This document shows, in pieces, positions 2,452 to 24,519 of a DNA stretch of 64,000 nt (position 1 is the first letter of the stretch; every line of letters starts with the position of its first letter). Position numbers and translations under genes: made by a program. Below the pieces are notes generated by a model. It did no database searches. It saw only the letters and a list, made by a program, of their open reading frames with translations, and had not been told where the DNA came from. The stretch lies in UHGV virus genome UHGV-1380027. One strand, 5' to 3'. The DNA comes from a virus.

Positions 2452-2646
2452 TTATCTCCCCAAGCCTCTGCAATCTTCTACCAGAATCTCCAGCCAGAAA
2501 GCACACGGGAACACTTTGATGATTGAATCTTTACTCGGCTCGGAAGTTCTTTTTCCGTAGGGCAGGTAGAAATACCCTCCTGCAGATTCAAACATGGCTC
2601 CTTCTGTTGTATCTATCACAGCTAGAATTAAGATTTTAGTCTCCAT
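2452..2646 (-). CDS. hypothetical protein (64 aa)
   Basis: co-oriented ORF. Confidence 0.4.
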   Translation of the reverse strand: METKILILAVIDTTEGAMFESAGGYFYLPYGKRTSEPSKDSIIKVFPCAFWLEILVEDCRGLGR

Positions 2647-2700: not shown

Positions 2701-3240
2701 TCAACACTCTTTGTACTCCACCACGATAATATCTATATCAAAAGTGGCAAGGTTAATAATGTCCTCTACATGTTCCCACTTCAAACCGCCTATGCCGCAC
2801 CCGATCTTAGGGATGTAGAATGGTAAAATCGACCCCTCAAATACTTCATTGACTCGCTCAAATCCTTTCAGTATTGAGAAATATTCAGCATTAGGCCCTG
2901 GGTAGAACTGAGTATACAGATTTATTCCGTAGACAATACCTCTCGGAGATAAGTGCTCCCAGCGGGAGAACGCGCCCAGTTTACTTAGGCAACCGTGCAT
3001 AGTCATTTTATCAGCTTCCAATGCTTGAGGGAACTCACGGGCAATCTGTTTTGCTACACCCTTACCCATTGTGTGGAAGCAGTTACAACCGTGGATCAGG
3101 TGACCAGCACCGCTCTTAAAAAGGGAGATTAAATCTCCCTCTACAGTATCAATAATCACGATATTCCAGCTCCTCTTCCACAATTTCAAAAAACTCAGTC
3201 CAGCACTGTGGCATATTGGAGTTACCGAAGTGGCTTTCAT
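2701..3240 (-). CDS. macro-domain-like protein (ADP-ribose binding/hydrolase fold)
   Basis: motifs HGCNCFHTMGKGVAKQIAREFP, LYTQFYPGP, FYIPKIGCGIGGL and DIDIIVVEY match the order and spacing of macro-domain loops (NAAN..GGGV..AI / HTVGP / AISTGIYG / RIIFCVF); true start may be GTG at 3159 (SD GAGGAG) rather than ATG 3240. Confidence 0.5.
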   Translation of the reverse strand: MKATSVTPICHSAGLSFLKLWKRSWNIVIIDTVEGDLISLFKSGAGHLIHGCNCFHTMGKGVAKQIAREFPQALEADKMTMHGCLSKLGAFSRWEHLSPRGIVYGINLYTQFYPGPNAEYFSILKGFERVNEVFEGSILPFYIPKIGCGIGGLKWEHVEDIINLATFDIDIIVVEYKEC

Positions 3241-4375: not shown

Positions 4376-4397
4376 GCCCCACCCTTTCGGGTAGGGC
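4376..4397 (-). terminator. rho-independent terminator hairpin (GAAA-loop type)
   Basis: minus-strand RNA GCCCUACCC-GAAA-GGGUGGGGC followed by AUUUUUGUAU; fully paired only in minus-strand transcript (G-U pair). Confidence 0.6.
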
Positions 4398-14534: not shown

Positions 14535-14556
14535 GCCCCACCCTTTCGGGCAGGGC
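14535..14556 (-). terminator. rho-independent terminator hairpin (GAAA-loop type)
   Basis: minus-strand RNA GCCCUGCCC-GAAA-GGGUGGGGC then CUUUUUGCAUU; paired with two G-U wobbles only on minus strand. Confidence 0.6.
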
Positions 14557-20146: not shown

Positions 20147-22129
20147 TTATTTGATGTTATTCTTTGTATCAATCAGTTCACGGTATTCAATCATAGCAGG
20201 AGTGTCCCAATATTTCAAGCCTACATGCTTCAAAAGTGGATATTTCTTTTCCAATCTTGCAATATAGGCCTTCCCGCACTTAACCCGGTTGGCGATTAAG
20301 ATTTTGGCACGATGATTTAGCTCACCGTACTTCCACGTGGTGCTACCTTCCCACTTGTGGAAATGTGGCCGATAACTTCCAAAATCCTGCATGGGGATAA
20401 TTTTACCTAACTGTCTGCACAGGCTGTCATATGAAGTTTCATTTGCTGCGCGAGTTAGTAAGAATTTCCAAGCATCCTCTTTCAACAAATGTTCCACATT
20501 CTTCTCTGTAACATATTGGCAATCAGGATCAGTCCAAAGCAGACGAGATTCCGACACCAGGTACAGATCTTCCCCTTCAGGAATCTGGAGTGCCGCACGC
20601 ACACGGTCATAATCTTGCTGGTAGATGTTGCTCATCTGCCCTAGCCAACAACTTCCGCGTTGGATATCCCCCTCATACGGTATGCAGTGCTTAATCTTCC
20701 TGAACTCTGCCTTAGTAATACGCTCACGCCGGAAGTAACCATCCTTCTCAAGTTTTTTAACCCAATAGCCTGGTTCGTAACGGGTTTTGGTTTCACCTTT
20801 CTTCGTAGGTCGGCGTGGAAGCTCCGATAACAATTTGACCGTATCTGCAAAAAACGGATGGTGTGCCGCCTCTTTAAACTCTTTCACCAGATCCGTGTTA
20901 CGGCAATAGAAAACGTTGCGTCCGGTAATCTCGCTTAAGTAGTTACACTTATTCCGGTTATATTTGCCGTCTCCGTCGTTAAATACTAAATAAACTCCCC
21001 GTAAGAATTCTACCTTTCCGTAGCAGGCGTAACCTATGCGGCCTTTATTTAAGCCGCCAGCGAAGATCTCGCAGTCCCCCAAATTTCCTAGCCCTGTTTC
21101 TTCCCAGCGGTCATACATAAAATTCTTACCGAAGATGTGCCCGAACACTCCACTGTTCTTCATCATCTCGCGTGCTTCTGAGGATGTTTTTGCTGTCTCC
21201 AGTTCTGCAACAACTTCTGCTCCACGAAGGCGAATGCCTTCTTTGACAAAAGCTTCCAAACGCTCTTGGAATCCACCATCGTCGTGACCTTCTATGGTCC
21301 ATTCACGCCCTGGGTTAATATTGCAATCTCCGATAGGGATCTCTACACAAATTGCAGGATAATCTATTAGTGTCTCCAGGAACTTAGAACGGTAAGGTTG
21401 GTGACCCATTACCACACGACTCTCGTCAGAGCTGGTATAACCCTTCAGGATGGTCATCTTCCAACCATCTTTTTCATAATAATACTGCGCCTCTACTTTG
21501 TCTCCCTCCAGCATCTTGCTCGTCATCGGGTCGGTGACAGTGAACGGAAATTTTGCATAGCGCAGGCATGATGCAATAGCGGTGCGATATTTCAGAACAT
21601 GCTCTTTCTTAACATGAAACTGAACTTTTACCCCGTTGTGCTCTTCAGTCTTCCGCTCACGGATCTTGGTGACATTTGGGATACCCTGGTCCAAGAACAA
21701 TAGGTATGTGCTTTCCACACCGTTGTGCACACTGATTACATCGAAAGTGTCCACCATGCTGAACGGGGCCTTTGAACCAACACCTTTATTGCCTACCAGA
21801 GCGTTGCTGTTGCGCTTGGTCGACTCACCGAGGTTCATGAAAGTGTTACGGACCATCTCTTCTGACATGCCTAATCCAACGTCCTGCACAAAGAAGTATG
21901 GTTCAAGGTCTGTAGGAGAGTGAATGATGATCGGAACATCACCCCGTCCAGACTCAACATGGGAGTCCACAGCATTGAAGATCGGTTCACGGCAGCTTGC
22001 CAGTACCTTATCTTCATAAATCCCTTTGATGATTAGCCCAAAAGTCTCTTTGTTCAGAGAAATTGATCCCCTGGTTACCTCCATATTCCCAGTTAGCACC
22101 GCTTTAGTTTCATTGCTGTTTACAATCAT
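20147..22129 (-). CDS. GHKL/Bergerat-fold ATPase domain protein, rIIA-like (660 aa)
   Basis: N-box REPIFNAVDS, G1 DVGLGM, G2 GNKGVGSK in N-terminal third; SD AAGGAG. Confidence 0.5.
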   Translation of the reverse strand: MIVNSNETKAVLTGNMEVTRGSISLNKETFGLIIKGIYEDKVLASCREPIFNAVDSHVESGRGDVPIIIHSPTDLEPYFFVQDVGLGMSEEMVRNTFMNLGESTKRNSNALVGNKGVGSKAPFSMVDTFDVISVHNGVESTYLLFLDQGIPNVTKIRERKTEEHNGVKVQFHVKKEHVLKYRTAIASCLRYAKFPFTVTDPMTSKMLEGDKVEAQYYYEKDGWKMTILKGYTSSDESRVVMGHQPYRSKFLETLIDYPAICVEIPIGDCNINPGREWTIEGHDDGGFQERLEAFVKEGIRLRGAEVVAELETAKTSSEAREMMKNSGVFGHIFGKNFMYDRWEETGLGNLGDCEIFAGGLNKGRIGYACYGKVEFLRGVYLVFNDGDGKYNRNKCNYLSEITGRNVFYCRNTDLVKEFKEAAHHPFFADTVKLLSELPRRPTKKGETKTRYEPGYWVKKLEKDGYFRRERITKAEFRKIKHCIPYEGDIQRGSCWLGQMSNIYQQDYDRVRAALQIPEGEDLYLVSESRLLWTDPDCQYVTEKNVEHLLKEDAWKFLLTRAANETSYDSLCRQLGKIIPMQDFGSYRPHFHKWEGSTTWKYGELNHRAKILIANRVKCGKAYIARLEKKYPLLKHVGLKYWDTPAMIEYRELIDTKNNIK

Positions 22130-22626
22130 TTATTGCGCTCCTTGTAGTAGATATGACTCCCGAATTGAGCTGTCCTCTGCATCTTTTTTGCCCATTTCGG
22201 TCGTACTTTTGTTGTATGGTAGTGTGTTGCTCCACCTGTTATATCCATAGCCATGTATGCAACATGGTTGTTATTATAGACCTTTAGAAGCATCTTTGCA
22301 AGACTTTTAGCGTGATCCCATGAATCTTTTTCTGTCACCTTAAAAGTTTTGCCGTGGTTTGTCCACGAAAACTGGTTAGGTTGGTAGACAATCTTTCTTA
22401 TAGTGTCTGGGTATTTGGGGTGAGATTTCCTGTTTAGTGTGGCAAATCCGGATGCCAGCATCCCCATCGTGCCATCCCCTCTAGCCTCCCTGTAGATATT
22501 GCATGCTAGAATGTTTTCCTTAGTATCCGACGGCTTGCAAGTGTGATATACTTTTTGTTTTGGTGCTGCAACAACAGGCAGCGATAAAAATGCGCTCAAA
22601 ATAATAGCAAAGATTTTAATTTTCAC
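22126..22626 (-). CDS. secreted cell-wall hydrolase, SleB/CwlJ-like (166 aa) with signal peptide
   Basis: N-terminal signal peptide MKIKIFAIILSAFLSLPVVAAP; motifs CNIYREARGD and YQPNQFSW. Confidence 0.6.
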   Translation of the reverse strand: MKIKIFAIILSAFLSLPVVAAPKQKVYHTCKPSDTKENILACNIYREARGDGTMGMLASGFATLNRKSHPKYPDTIRKIVYQPNQFSWTNHGKTFKVTEKDSWDHAKSLAKMLLKVYNNNHVAYMAMDITGGATHYHTTKVRPKWAKKMQRTAQFGSHIYYKERNK

Positions 22627-22646
22627 AATAGCTCCAAATAGAAAAT

Positions 22647-22662
22647 CCCCGCCGAAGCGGGG
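22647..22662 (-). terminator. rho-independent terminator hairpin (UUCG-loop type)
   Basis: minus-strand RNA CCCCGC-UUCG-GCGGGG followed by AUUUUCUAUUU; the U-tract overlaps the SD of the hydrolase gene. Confidence 0.6.
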
Positions 22663-22675
22663 TGTGTCTTAGAAA

Positions 22676-23056
22676 TTAATCGTAGTGTGCCAAAATCTCT
22701 CCATCGTTGCAAGTCCCCTCTACGAAGTTGTGAAGATTCATGCATTCATCTTGATAGAAGAATTTACCGCTTTTCAGCCGTAGACCAAACAACTCCGCAT
22801 CTCCACGATGGCAAGCCTCTACAAGTTCATAGATTTCATACGGTAATTCCCCATCGTCATGGAAGAACCCCGCTTTATCGTTGACATAGATGAAGAAATA
22901 GTCACTGCTGTCGCAAGCGTCCAGTATTTTAAACCAGATTTCATCCACATCTTTTTCTCGGATATCGATCACACAAGTGGAGCTGCATTCGTACTCCTTC
23001 TCCGGCTCCTCGGTCAATACCACTAGGTAGTTTCCCCGCTTACCTACTTTAGCCAT
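22676..23056 (-). CDS. hypothetical protein (126 aa)
   Basis: co-oriented ORF. Confidence 0.5.
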   Translation of the reverse strand: MAKVGKRGNYLVVLTEEPEKEYECSSTCVIDIREKDVDEIWFKILDACDSSDYFFIYVNDKAGFFHDDGELPYEIYELVEACHRGDAELFGLRLKSGKFFYQDECMNLHNFVEGTCNDGEILAHYD

Positions 23057-23065
23057 ACAACCTCC

Positions 23066-24250
23066 TCAAGCTTTAGCTAAAATGGCGCTAAACTCTTCAC
23101 CAAACTCTTTTACAATCTTCATCAGGTTTGGGTATGCTTTGATCAGCTGAGCAACGATCTTGTCCCTGCCTTTACCAATAAGTAAGGCATTTCCTAAGGC
23201 GTTAGGTTTCATCATCGCCATAAAGACTGAGAATACAAAGTCTCGGTTCTCATCCTTGAAATTTTCCCAAAGGAAATCAAGGAAGTTTGCCACACAGCTG
23301 ACGAGATCTTCGTCGGAGATACTTGCATTTTCCATCATATTACGAATAGCGATACAACCTTCAGACCCCAGAATCCACAAGATGTCTGGCTGCTTAGGAC
23401 CTACATATTCTTTGCAGCCTCCTGCCATAATCCGACCGATTTCTGGCAAGTTTCGTTTCTTGGTGTGGTAGGTCCAAATTTCTACCGCTGCAGTGTGACC
23501 AATTGCACCTTGTAGAAGGACACGGGCCATAGCGTCAGAAATAATACCGCTGTCAAAATCGTGCAGGATGTCAGATGCAGCAACCCAAGATCGCGGTGTA
23601 GCAAAAGATGGACAATTAATCTCAGCCATGGCCTCATAATTATCGATGGCTGATGGGACTCTTTTCAGATATCCAATTACCGAGGAGTGCACCCCATTAA
23701 GGAATGCATAGTCCTCAATAAACACCTCTGCACTGCTTGTAACTTCTACAATGATAAAGCGGTTAGCTAGAGGAGCTTCGAGCGCCGAAAGAACAGCACC
23801 GTCTGTAGCACGGTTACCTGCAGCTACAAAAACAGAGCCCTTAGGAAATGCATAGGTGCCGCACTTGTGGTCGAGCATAATTTGCATTGCAACCTTCTGC
23901 AGGTAGTTATCTGCATGAGTAAGCTCATCTAGAAAGATAATTCCGCTCCAGTCCGGATCTGCAGGCCAAAATTCTGGAATTGCAAACACTGTGCGTGTAG
24001 TCCCATCCGACTCTACAGGGATAGGTAGCCCAGATAAGTCAGCAGGATCTTTATCTGACAACCGCACGTCAACCAGGTTGTCATCTCGCTCACCGAACAT
24101 GTTATCAGCAATCTGCTTCATCACCTGGCTCTTCCCCACGCCCATCGGTCCTAAAATCAGGACAGATCGGTTATGACGCTGGGCAAATTGAATAATAGCT
24201 GGCAACTCGCGGACAGTGATTTGACCACTTTCGAATACGTTTCTTGACAT
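23066..24250 (-). CDS. AAA+ ATPase, MoxR/AAA_5-like (394 aa)
   Basis: Walker A LGPMGVGKSQ, Walker B IIFLDELTHA, sensor-region AAGNRATDG. Confidence 0.65.
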   Translation of the reverse strand: MSRNVFESGQITVRELPAIIQFAQRHNRSVLILGPMGVGKSQVMKQIADNMFGERDDNLVDVRLSDKDPADLSGLPIPVESDGTTRTVFAIPEFWPADPDWSGIIFLDELTHADNYLQKVAMQIMLDHKCGTYAFPKGSVFVAAGNRATDGAVLSALEAPLANRFIIVEVTSSAEVFIEDYAFLNGVHSSVIGYLKRVPSAIDNYEAMAEINCPSFATPRSWVAASDILHDFDSGIISDAMARVLLQGAIGHTAAVEIWTYHTKKRNLPEIGRIMAGGCKEYVGPKQPDILWILGSEGCIAIRNMMENASISDEDLVSCVANFLDFLWENFKDENRDFVFSVFMAMMKPNALGNALLIGKGRDKIVAQLIKAYPNLMKIVKEFGEEFSAILAKA

Positions 24251-24519
24251 TAGTAAAAGTCCTCTACTTGTGTGTAAGTGTTTTCAAAGTTTTCCAAAAC
24301 AGACATCACATCGGATCTGTCAATATCATACGCAACTCTCCAGCCATATGCAACCCTTTCTGCTGTTGCCTCTTCTGGCGCTAGTCGTCTGCTGGCATAA
24401 AAGAGTGTTGGAGTACACTTTCTTGCTTGCCCTCTAACTTTCCCATAATAATATCTGTGAATATCTTTGTCAAAATTTAATTCTTTTTCTGCACGAAGTT
24501 CGTACTGCTGGTATAACAT
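24250..24519 (-). CDS. hypothetical protein (89 aa)
   Basis: co-oriented ORF, start overlaps stop of upstream gene. Confidence 0.45.
   Translation of the reverse strand: MLYQQYELRAEKELNFDKDIHRYYYGKVRGQARKCTPTLFYASRRLAPEEATAERVAYGWRVAYDIDRSDVMSVLENFENTYTQVEDFY

Follow-up and report, generated by a model that had tools for sequence, protein, structure and literature searches.

Holin-independent export by Sec is known for Lys44 of fOg44, Lyz of P1 and R of phage 21, each the sole endolysin of its phage. SAR domains are weakly hydrophobic and remain uncleaved. T5-like phages, which have SleB homologues in their early region, have their own endolysin and holin. The natural substrate of SleB is muramic-delta-lactam cortex peptidoglycan. 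For secreted phage SleB proteins, the searched literature gave functional notes only on Aeromonas phage ASG01 and Pectobacterium phage CB7. Cwh of ASG01 is a Hydrolase_2 protein whose signal peptide has 23 aa. As the sole protein expressed, it lyses E. coli; E42A lowers this lysis and C34A abolishes it (PMC10975977). The CB7 homologue was noted to have a signal peptide and to be toxic in E. coli (data not shown there), and a passage of the same paper calls CR3_087 'implicated in host lysis' (PMC7344957). In Kayvirus, the secreted accessory lytic transglycosylase Tgl is transcribed early, from a gene separate from that of the main endolysin. Its effect in E. coli is toxic or lytic; at the level tested it lysed S. 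aureus only after dissipation of the proton-motive force (PMC7150955).

The closest described locus is that of rV5. Kropinski et al. 2013 annotated gp2 as 'cell wall hydrolase', listed it with PF07486, and gave the terminator t003, printed as CCCCGCTTCGGCGGGGATTTTCTATTT at -16.0 kcal/mol, as one of the 20 terminators of their Table S4 (PMC3606486). That work leaves the signal peptide and the GTG start undiscussed, and likewise the overlap of the gene with rIIA and the conserved position of the terminator. We analysed a stretch of 64,000 nucleotides (hereafter the window) that belongs to a Vequintavirus, i.e., an rV5-like E. coli phage, with 99.9% identity to phage ECP26; phage FV3 is about 96% identical over the hydrolase region. 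The gene and the hairpin are those of rV5, without structural difference, and ECP26, FV3, Murica and others carry identical annotations. The direct impact of the locus is small because publications and GenBank records already cover gene, domain, signal peptide and terminator. What we add is that the leader layout is kept across genera of Vequintavirinae, that coupling to rIIA is possible, and that the phage has a separate endolysin and spanins. The features are collected in Table 1.

Table 1. Features of the hydrolase locus (coordinates of the window).
Feature	Position	Strand	Evidence
rIIA homologue	20147..22129	-	phrog_612, E=2.9e-123
SleB-type (Hydrolase_2) cell-wall hydrolase CDS, 166 aa	22126..22626	-	ORF list, Pfam, PHROG, PDB, AF2/Foldseek
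GTG start and TGA stop of the hydrolase CDS	22626-22624 (GTG); 22128-22126 (TGA)	-	
Hydrolase_2 catalytic domain, residues 51-161 (Pfam envelope)	22144..22476	-	Pfam, AF2, Foldseek
Glu47 codon GAG	22486..22488	-	aligned to first Glu of SleB YGESRGE (phmmer, 4f55/4fet)
Predicted Sec-type cleavable signal peptide, codons 1-20, cleavage as MKIKIFAIILSAFLSLPVVA/A	22567..22626	-	sequence, pLDDT, homologues
Shine-Dalgarno (SD) GGAG, 5 nt before GTG	22632..22635	-	sequence; invariant in 6 Vequintavirus genomes
Interrupted U-tract AUUUUCUAUUU (A-UUUU-C-U-A-UUU), adjoining SD	22636..22646	-	sequence
Terminator hairpin CCCCGC-UUCG-GCGGGG, rV5 't003'	22647..22662	-	terminator scan
Upstream gene, rV5 gp3 homologue, 126 aa, acidic, phrog_12370	22676..23056	-	ORF list, PHROG

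The protein, 99.9% identical to the ECP26 'cell wall hydrolase' (QDB73441), matched the Pfam profile Hydrolase_2 (PF07486) over positions 2-100 of 100 with 70.4 bits (cut-off 27, E=2.1e-19). The gathering score is exceeded, which makes it a member of the Hydrolase_2 (SleB/CwlJ) family. It also matched phrog_938 'endolysin' (E=1.7e-27). Searched with phmmer against the PDB, it matched only the catalytic domains of SleB (4f55 and 4fet), its YREARGD aligning over YGESRGE. The AlphaFold2 model has a mean pLDDT of 91.5, and its predicted fold, which begins near residue 28, retrieved only SleB with Foldseek: the significant PDB matches to the model were 4fet_A/B and 4f55 (probability 1.0, target TM 0.72-0.79), with 4fet_A at a target TM of 0.79 and an rmsd of 2.7. 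No further Pfam domain was matched; the catalytic domain is preceded only by the signal peptide and about 10 residues. A search with the single sequence gave 10 homologues, whereas the profile gave 1,829. Within the motif Y-x-E-x-R-G-E/D, neither Y45 nor E47 varies across alignments of 14 and of 67 sequences, and R49 hardly does. We take Glu47 to be the catalytic residue, from what is known of the SleB family. The enzyme is probably a lytic transglycosylase, as SleB is, and its homologues suggest that it may act on E. coli murein.

The initial annotation had reported a Sec-type signal and SleB motifs. Both stand, the latter on the matches above and the former on N-terminal features, cleavage being assessed by rules of thumb. 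The N-terminus reads MKIK-IFAIILSAFLSLPVV-A/A (the slash marks the predicted cut): a basic n-region (K2/K4), an h-region of 15 residues (IFAIILSAFLSLPVV; Kyte-Doolittle about 2.7, 27% G/A/S/T), and a cleavage-type c-region, V-V-A/A. The model has a pLDDT of 55-66 across residues 1-20. Among 121 homologues inspected, nearly all full-length sequences have N-terminal signal-like segments; equivalent cleavage sites occur in homologues as ...PVLA/K and ...SQA/S, and T5.083-type proteins also carry an N-terminal signal (MKAALLLVAALTFSFSSQA/S). C42 is invariant and C30 is kept in the aligned Vequintavirinae and Stephanstirmvirinae sequences, which fits a periplasmic disulfide and so supports export. 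A SAR endolysin was ruled out, since the h-region is strongly hydrophobic with only 27% G/A/S/T and is followed by an A-x-A-type site. The protein does not appear to be a virion-associated lysin: none of five of its tryptic peptides was in the rV5 virion mass spectrometry table, a weak result given the low coverage of minor proteins, and a Sec signal is incompatible with assembly in the cytoplasm. Export without a holin, as the initial annotation proposed, is plausible in view of the lysis by ASG01 Cwh and the toxicity of the CB7 protein.

The leader of the gene is compact. The UUCG hairpin lies where it had been placed, ending 20 nt before the GTG; it has six G-C pairs closed by a C(UUCG)G tetraloop (dG -12.0 kcal/mol). 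On the transcribed strand it has the form of an intrinsic terminator, whereas the opposite strand (TGTGTCTTAG) is without a U-tract. Two details had to be amended: the U-tract adjoins the GGAG and does not overlap it, and, being interrupted, it does not establish a 'strong' terminator. In the window, CUUCGG occurs 23 times for 17.5 expected, which is not significant. Since 20 nt leave no room for a promoter, transcripts of the hydrolase must cross the hairpin. This much of the earlier proposal of expression by read-through or antitermination holds; the antitermination part is unsupported, neither a factor nor an RNA element for it having come to light (Rfam, positions 21900-23300, E<=1, gave nothing). 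A promoter overlapping the terminator was considered and rejected: such a site is seen in CR3 only (TTGACT-16-TAAACT, 9/12) and has no equivalent in the window.

The layout is conserved. In six Vequintavirus genomes the hairpin, U-tract, GGAG and GTG are unchanged, while the spacer between SD and start and 3-4 nt 5' of the stem vary. Loci of Seunavirus, Mydovirus-like phages and Certrevirus have the same layout with other stem sequences, and two Certrevirus-type hairpins differ by three stem substitutions with pairing preserved in all. Among Vequintavirinae-like IMG/VR loci, a hairpin with U-tract ends 17-20 nt before the homologous start in 15 of 18 cases, vs. 5 of 114 other ORFs taken as controls from the same loci (Fisher p=5e-13, without correction for phylogeny). 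On these counts the placement exceeds chance. The start codon is GTG or TTG in most lineages; for comparison, 4 of the 53 annotated ECP26 genes have a non-ATG start.

The hairpin could nevertheless do no more than end the early operon before it (P010 to gp3); it would then lie near the SD through tight packing of the genome, with no regulatory bearing on the hydrolase. The rV5 authors list it plainly among their terminators, and in FV3 about a dozen others precede the next start codon of their strand by 16-35 nt; judged from these, a terminator adjoining the next SD is a general habit in this genome. Pairing of the SD in the read-through RNA is also inconsistent between genera. Against this, the position directly before SleB is kept where the upstream gene differs, the excess over other ORFs of the same loci is large, and the hairpin co-occurs with non-ATG starts. 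We hold a purely operon-ending role to be rather unlikely. The frequency of the terminator-SD layout is at the same time a point against reading the hairpin as a throttle of an accessory enzyme. Sequestration of the SD in the read-through RNA was dropped as a mechanism: in the minimum free energy fold of the window the GGAG and start region pair with the 3' end of gp3 (z=-2.5), but partners and pairing are inconsistent across five other genera.

As first described, the hydrolase gene has the MoxR-like ATPase region on one side and rIIA on the other, and the structural genes are far away. Upstream, a transcript of the gp3 homologue would stop at the hairpin. A conserved gp3-SleB pair was rejected: gp3 had no tblastn match in the related loci searched and is not kept upstream of SleB in other genera. 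Downstream, the ATG of rIIA (22129-22127) overlaps the TGA of the hydrolase as ATGA. This implies that the two genes are co-transcribed, translational coupling is possible, and read-through of the hairpin also carries rIIA, which ties the hydrolase to the early/middle replication block rather than to a late switch for lysis. The same read-through would be needed for rIIA and possibly for rIIB and the helicase, which speaks against a throttle specific to the hydrolase in this genus. In 12 related loci rIIA follows SleB, and the linkage SleB-rIIA-rIIB is kept in several genera. In Certrevirus, Seunavirus and Mydovirus-like phages SleB is followed by a small holin-like ORF with two TMDs, which is absent after SleB in Vequintavirus; its absence counts against an accessory lytic role as well. 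A relocated homologue of this ORF was sought in Vequintavirus by tblastn (E<=10) and rejected, the matches being noise. The hydrolase CDS contains a promoter-like site, TTGCAA-17-TATAAT at 22301..22273 (10/12), also present in FV3 and ECP26. We rejected it as an internal promoter of rIIA: the position is not conserved and the match is probably due to coding constraint. Seunavirus-type loci have 11/12 promoter-like sites elsewhere, coinciding with the codons of the conserved LDIT...YYH motif.

The phage lineage has other lysis genes. LysECP26, a lambda-R-like endolysin active in vitro, comes from the phage 99.9% identical to the window (PMC9728275). FV3_00082 matches lambda lysozyme 1am7 (phmmer, E=1.5e-48), and Rz/Rz1-like spanins adjoin the terminase gene. 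Pfam at 0.01 gave no matches for the FV3 lysozyme, membrane protein and spanins. With a separate lambda-R-like endolysin and spanins, the hydrolase is unlikely to be a stand-alone lysin. This bears on the suggestion that it is a tightly timed lysis enzyme, i.e., the principal endolysin, independent of a holin, with regulated read-through or antitermination setting the moment of lysis. PHROG and several GenBank records do call the protein 'endolysin', Cwh lyses E. coli by itself, CR3_087 is linked to lysis in the CB7 passage quoted above, and three groups of related phages have the holin-like ORF next to the gene. But the active endolysin and spanins are encoded elsewhere in the same lineage, Vequintavirus lacks the adjacent holin-like ORF, neither an antiterminator nor a riboswitch-like element came to light, and constitutive export offers no obvious timing device. 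The gene also belongs to an early/middle leftward block with its stop overlapping the start of rIIA, and the terminator-SD arrangement is commonplace. We consider a principal endolysin improbable, and tight timing of lysis is not borne out.

The genomic position suits another role, that of a secreted peptidoglycan remodeller acting without lysis in early or mid infection, with lysis on overexpression as a side effect. Such an enzyme might loosen the sacculus for enlargement, change the envelope together with rIIA/rIIB, or concern superinfecting phages or peptidoglycan-sensing defences. Besides the early/replication block, the possible coupling to rIIA and the conserved linkage to the rII genes, this reading draws on the T5-like phages, whose SleB homologues with signal peptide lie in the early region of phages with their own endolysin and holin, and on Stephanstirmvirinae, whose homologues adjoin early-type small genes. 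A low-dose design of terminator and GUG would also suit an enzyme whose action has to stop short of lysis. Yet the functional data on homologues concern only lysis and toxicity, the adjacent holin-like ORF of other genera indicates lysis, and the searched literature gave no experimental support for a non-lytic role. A pure remodeller seems doubtful to us, although a secreted role other than primary lysis, the second option of the initial annotation, is closer to the evidence than the timed lysin.

The explanation we favour, to which we give about an even chance, is that the hydrolase is an accessory, second muralytic enzyme exported by Sec, whose dose is limited because the terminator lets only some transcripts pass and the start is weak. 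The cleavable signal would take it to the periplasm through the host Sec/LepB pathway, without a holin. Transcription would come solely from read-through of a partially efficient terminator that closes the upstream P010-gp3 early operon, and a weak GUG would initiate translation of an ORF whose stop overlaps the rIIA start. Terminator and non-AUG start together would hold the periplasmic dose below that needed to lyse an energised, wall-synthesising cell. Once the canonical holin, lambda-R-like endolysin and spanins fire, the pre-positioned hydrolase may aid the destruction of the sacculus. The searched literature gave no transcript, termination-efficiency or protein-localisation data for Vequintavirinae.

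A broader reading would make SleB, the optional two-TMD protein, rIIA and rIIB one conserved envelope/lysis-timing module of Vequintavirinae, ordered as leaky terminator, non-AUG start, Sec-exported hydrolase and rII proteins. We regard this as very improbable. If true, the rII proteins, enigmatic for so long, would bear on the very process in which a murein hydrolase exported ahead of time takes part, e.g., by keeping it from causing premature lysis; rII function outside T4 would then become open to concrete biochemical study.

A Hydrolase_2 homologue is encoded in at least 1,337 of 50,697 phage records, among them those of T5-like, rV5-like, phi92/phAPEC8-like and PAK_P3-like phages. The phage homologues examined have a signal peptide, and several of these phages also encode a canonical endolysin. 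The conserved terminator-SD-GUG/UUG design and the linkage to rIIA/rIIB raise the question of whether virulent phages of Gram-negative bacteria routinely pre-load the periplasm with such an enzyme. For enzybiotic work, the hydrolase is likely to be toxic if expressed with its signal peptide.

Compared with Bacillus SleB (4fet, 4f55), the hydrolase shares the fold of the catalytic domain and the E-x-R-G-E/D motif at 21-24% identity, but it is phage-encoded, predicted to be periplasmic, and without the N-terminal PG_binding_1 domain. This last difference led us to reject an assignment as SleB proper, the germination-specific cortex-lytic enzyme. As the E. coli host has no muramic-delta-lactam cortex, substrate specificity must differ too. 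ASG01 Cwh has the same domain and a signal peptide, and its C34 and E42 correspond to C42 and E47; it differs in sequence (about 30% identity, from its close relative 2L372X_174) and in the second cysteine, C72 instead of C30. Moreover, Cwh is regarded as the endolysin by the ASG01 authors, who detected neither a holin nor a spanin nor a further lysin, whereas the rV5-like phage has a separate endolysin. Lys44, Lyz and R of phage 21 resemble the hydrolase in Sec export, but its strongly hydrophobic h-region is unlike SAR. The T5.083-type SleB and the Hydrolase_2 proteins of Stephanstirmvirinae (phAPEC8/phi92-like) are 34-43% identical to it and have signal peptides. They occur in phages that encode another endolysin, within non-structural blocks made up of small genes (for T5, the early region). 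Their leaders differ: T5-like phages have no upstream terminator, the gene starting 5 nt past the previous stop, and in Stephanstirmvirinae a promoter-like site comes after the hairpin and the leader is longer. Kayvirus Tgl matches the proposed role, as a second muralytic enzyme exported by a signal peptide, but it belongs to the IsaA/SceD-type fold family, serves a phage of a Gram-positive host, and has no described arrangement of terminator and weak start.

The hydrolase gene and its terminator are both already known. In the rV5 genome paper, gene 2, the homologue of the window gene, appears as "cell wall hydrolase, PF07486", and an identical hairpin is printed as terminator t003 (rV5 2490..2516, -16.0 kcal/mol) (PMC3606486). 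Several GenBank records also carry a "terminator" feature at this site. Our additions are modest: a conserved layout pointing to low expression, and a linkage to rII. The features are collected in the table.

Table. Positions of the hydrolase gene and associated features (window positions unless a locus with an L number is named).
Feature	Position	Strand	Basis or remark
Hydrolase ORF, 166 aa	22626 (GTG) to 22126 (TGA)	-	ORF list and sequence
Hairpin CCCCGC-UUCG-GCGGGG	22662..22647	-	terminator scan, sequence
Gene 5' of hairpin (gp3), 126 aa	22676-23056	-	listed pI 4.3, phrog_12370
Two-TMD ORF	L007 4036-4209; L006 4036-4191; L008 3977-4165		two hydrophobic segments
Two-TMD ORF	also L011/L013/L016/L018/L019/L021/L022
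Sigma-70-like match, TTGACA-17-TATTAT	24445-24473	-	11/12
Sigma-70-like match in hydrolase CDS, TTGCAA-17-TATAAT	22273-22301	-
Sigma-70-like match in SleB CDS, Seunavirus-type, TTGACA-17-TATTAT	L007 3898-3926; L016/L019/L022 at +391/+397 from SleB start		11/12
Terminators GCCCTGCCCGAAAGGGTGGGGC and GCCCTACCCGAAAGGGTGGGGC	14535-14556 and 4376-4397	-	rV5 t232 and t213
SleB start, Mydovirus-like isolates	L011 and L012, ~2985-3010		GGGAGG-TTAAC-ATC-AAA...
Lipobox-clade member	L092 5001-5465		amid small genes, 97-kb contig

The initial annotation had proposed a signal-bearing SleB-type hydrolase at this site, and the ORF, the Pfam, PDB and Foldseek searches and the N-terminus bear it out. The protein matches Pfam Hydrolase_2 (PF07486) with 70.4 bits (cut-off 27) and PHROG 938, labelled "endolysin". 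Its only PDB matches were the Bacillus SleB catalytic domains 4f55 and 4fet, with YREARGD aligned to YGESRGE. The AlphaFold2 model, built from a 67-sequence alignment, has a mean pLDDT of 91.5 (55-66 for residues 1-20), and SleB was its sole significant Foldseek match in the PDB (4fet_A, probability 1.0, target-normalised TM 0.79, rmsd 2.7 Å). Glu47 was unchanged across both homologue alignments (14 and 67 sequences). The N-terminal residues, MKIK-IFAIILSAFLSLPVV-A↓A, are built like a Sec signal, judged by sequence rules. G/A/S/T account for 27% of the h-region, which is strongly hydrophobic and thus unlike a SAR domain. The promoter-like matches inside the coding sequence fall on different codons in the window and in Seunavirus-type loci. 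The Seunavirus match lies on the conserved LDIT...YYH motif, so such sites are probably a by-product of coding; we dropped an internal promoter because its position differs between genera.

Homologues were found by tblastn in 1,337 phage records, including T5-like phages, PAK_P3-like and further phages, and Stephanstirmvirinae, where a Hydrolase_2 protein is reported alongside a Phage_lysozyme. The T5 homologue, T5.083, has the signal peptide MKAALLLVAALTFSFSSQA↓S and lies in the T5 early region. Of the 121 homologues retrieved, nearly all that are full-length had a signal-like N-terminus. A large clade of ~155-aa Hydrolase_2 homologues (P0006, P0052-P0121) starts with a lipobox-like ...ALLLSTASC, which suggests that in these the secreted hydrolase is a lipoprotein; one member, on a 97-kb contig (L092), has small genes around it. 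The paper on Pectobacterium phage CB7 described homologues with a signal peptide in every Vequintavirinae genus, toxic on expression in E. coli (data not shown there) (PMC7344957).

The initial annotation had also placed a terminator before the hydrolase gene, with its U-tract overlapping the Shine-Dalgarno sequence (SD). The UUCG hairpin is indeed directly 5' of the gene, but the U-tract is interrupted and abuts the SD; the order 3' of the hairpin is AUUUUCUAUUU, GGAG, 5 nt, GTG. The observation is thus confirmed, and its interpretation (a timed lysis enzyme or a secreted non-lytic protein, with expression dependent on read-through or antitermination) is partly supported. Six Vequintavirus genomes share the hairpin, U-tract, GGAG and GTG without change, and vary in the 3-4 nt directly 5' of the stem and in the SD-start spacer. 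Between genera the position of the terminator is constant and the stem sequence changes: AGCCCCG-CAAU-GGGGCU UUUUAAUUUGGAG...UUG in Mydovirus-like loci, AGCCCC-UUUCUU-GGGGCU ...UUG in Seunavirus, and AAAGGCUCAGU-GAUAA-ACUGGGCCUUU ...AUG in Certrevirus. Two Certrevirus-type stems differ at 3 positions and keep pairing at all 3. A hairpin with a U-tract ends 17-20 nt 5' of the SleB start in 15 of 18 Vequintavirinae-like IMG/VR loci, against 5 of 114 other ORFs there (Fisher p=5e-13, a value that ignores shared ancestry); the control count for FV3 is 14 of 197. In a 16th locus the hairpin is present and the U-tract degraded. The SleB start is GTG or TTG in most lineages; non-ATG starts occur in only 4 of the 53 annotated ECP26 genes.

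A terminator unrelated to the hydrolase gene would account for the same arrangement. FV3 has about a dozen other terminators 16-35 nt 5' of the next same-strand start, which counts against a special role for this hairpin. The gene 5' of the hairpin differs between genera, and the constant partner of the hairpin is thus the hydrolase gene; we consider an unrelated terminator unlikely. An Rfam search around the hairpin (window 21900-23300) found no RNA element, and SD sequestration in read-through RNA was dropped since the predicted pairing is inconsistent between genera.

Two near-identical terminators in the replication block of the window stand 23-25 nt 5' of the next start codon; like the hydrolase hairpin, they have the terminator-then-SD layout, and their rV5 counterparts are t232 and t213. 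In two Mydovirus-like isolates the aligned SleB start lacks ATG, GTG or TTG and the upstream terminator is missing too; ATC or GTT may serve as the start, or translation may be very weak.

Over window 21000-24300, identity is 99.9% with Escherichia phage vB_EcoM-ECP26 and 94-99% with over 100 further Vequintavirus (rV5/FV3-like) genomes. The matches to this region include 16 "Campylobacter phage" records (among them MG065659 and MG065635; host C. jejuni, some UNVERIFIED) that are 92-99% identical to rV5-like coliphages; at least one, C12, is a Vequintavirus in the NCBI classification, and these host labels are probably wrong. The ECP26 annotation gives, on the minus strand in transcription order, MoxR ATPase, a hypothetical protein, cell wall hydrolase, rIIA protector and rIIB protector, and further along helicase, methyltransferase, primase-helicase and DNA polymerase. 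In the rV5 paper the leftward block (genes 10-1-238-164) is put forward as a single transcriptional unit from promoter P010 (PMC3606486). The top sigma-70-like match of the neighbourhood, absent from the promoter table of that paper, lies within an 89-aa ORF just 5' of the MoxR-like ATPase gene; this predicted promoter could feed transcription to MoxR, gp3 and the hairpin. No Pfam domain was found in gp3, nor any homologue of it 5' of SleB in other genera, and a conserved gp3-SleB pair was dropped, as gp3 had no match in the related loci searched. The gp3 row of rV5 Table S3 names T5.083 as homologue; T5.083 is the SleB homologue of T5, so this row is possibly shifted.

The hydrolase TGA shares bases with the rIIA ATG (ATGA at window 22129-22126), and rIIA is downstream of the hydrolase gene in 12 related loci. 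This linkage would suit a non-lytic remodelling enzyme tied to rII, an alternative to which we give little credence; the toxicity of the homologues counts against it. In all of the 12 loci but L020, a 51-77-aa two-TMD ORF (e.g., MKNFLLLCVCIIPYLVILSITQWMFWEQVSGAYLLGLLAGIYIVRKARKRNPINNCK) lies between the hydrolase gene and rIIA. It is directly 3' of SleB in Seunavirus, Mydovirus-like, Certrevirus and related loci, and before rIIA where rIIA is present. A small two-TMD ORF overlapping the CB7 homologue was put forward as a class II holin (PMC7344957). No homologue of the two-TMD ORF was found by tblastn anywhere in the window or FV3, and a relocated holin-like ORF in Vequintavirus was dropped for this reason.

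These phages have other lysis genes. Elsewhere in their genomes, FV3 and rV5 have a gene for a lambda-R-like lysozyme (FV3_00082 versus 1am7, E=1.5e-48), and Rz/Rz1-like spanins adjoin the terminase gene. The "obvious lysin" of the rV5 authors is gp89 (PMC3606486), and LysECP26, the purified ECP26 orthologue of the lambda-R-like lysozyme, lysed all of the 29 Gram-negative strains on which it was tried (PMC9728275). The rV5 virion MS table, which has low coverage of minor proteins, holds no peptides of the SleB-type protein. With a separate lysozyme and no virion peptides, the hydrolase would be a second, non-virion, predicted muralytic enzyme. A stand-alone, timed lysin is quite improbable given these genes, even if a relative, Cwh of Aeromonas phage ASG01 (Hydrolase_2 domain, 23-aa signal peptide), lyses E. 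coli on its own (PMC10975977).

Our preferred reading is a secreted enzyme kept at low dose. The presence and conservation of the hairpin are observed, and the rest we infer; no transcriptomes of Vequintavirinae phages turned up in the literature searched. The hairpin would end the P010-gp3 early operon, some transcripts passing it and carrying the hydrolase gene, rIIA and genes beyond, and the weak GUG start would further cut hydrolase synthesis. The enzyme would reach the periplasm via Sec, losing its signal peptide. The cell may withstand a small amount there until the phage's canonical holin and endolysin take effect, and the hydrolase would then add to wall destruction. The Kayvirus Tgl paper (PMC7150955) discusses studies of secreted lysins, and from these comes our logic of dose and proton-motive force. 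In ASG01 Cwh, lysis is abolished by C34A and reduced by E42A (PMC10975977); mapped through 2L372X_174, a Cwh relative 30% identical to the window protein, these residues correspond to C42 and E47 of the window hydrolase.
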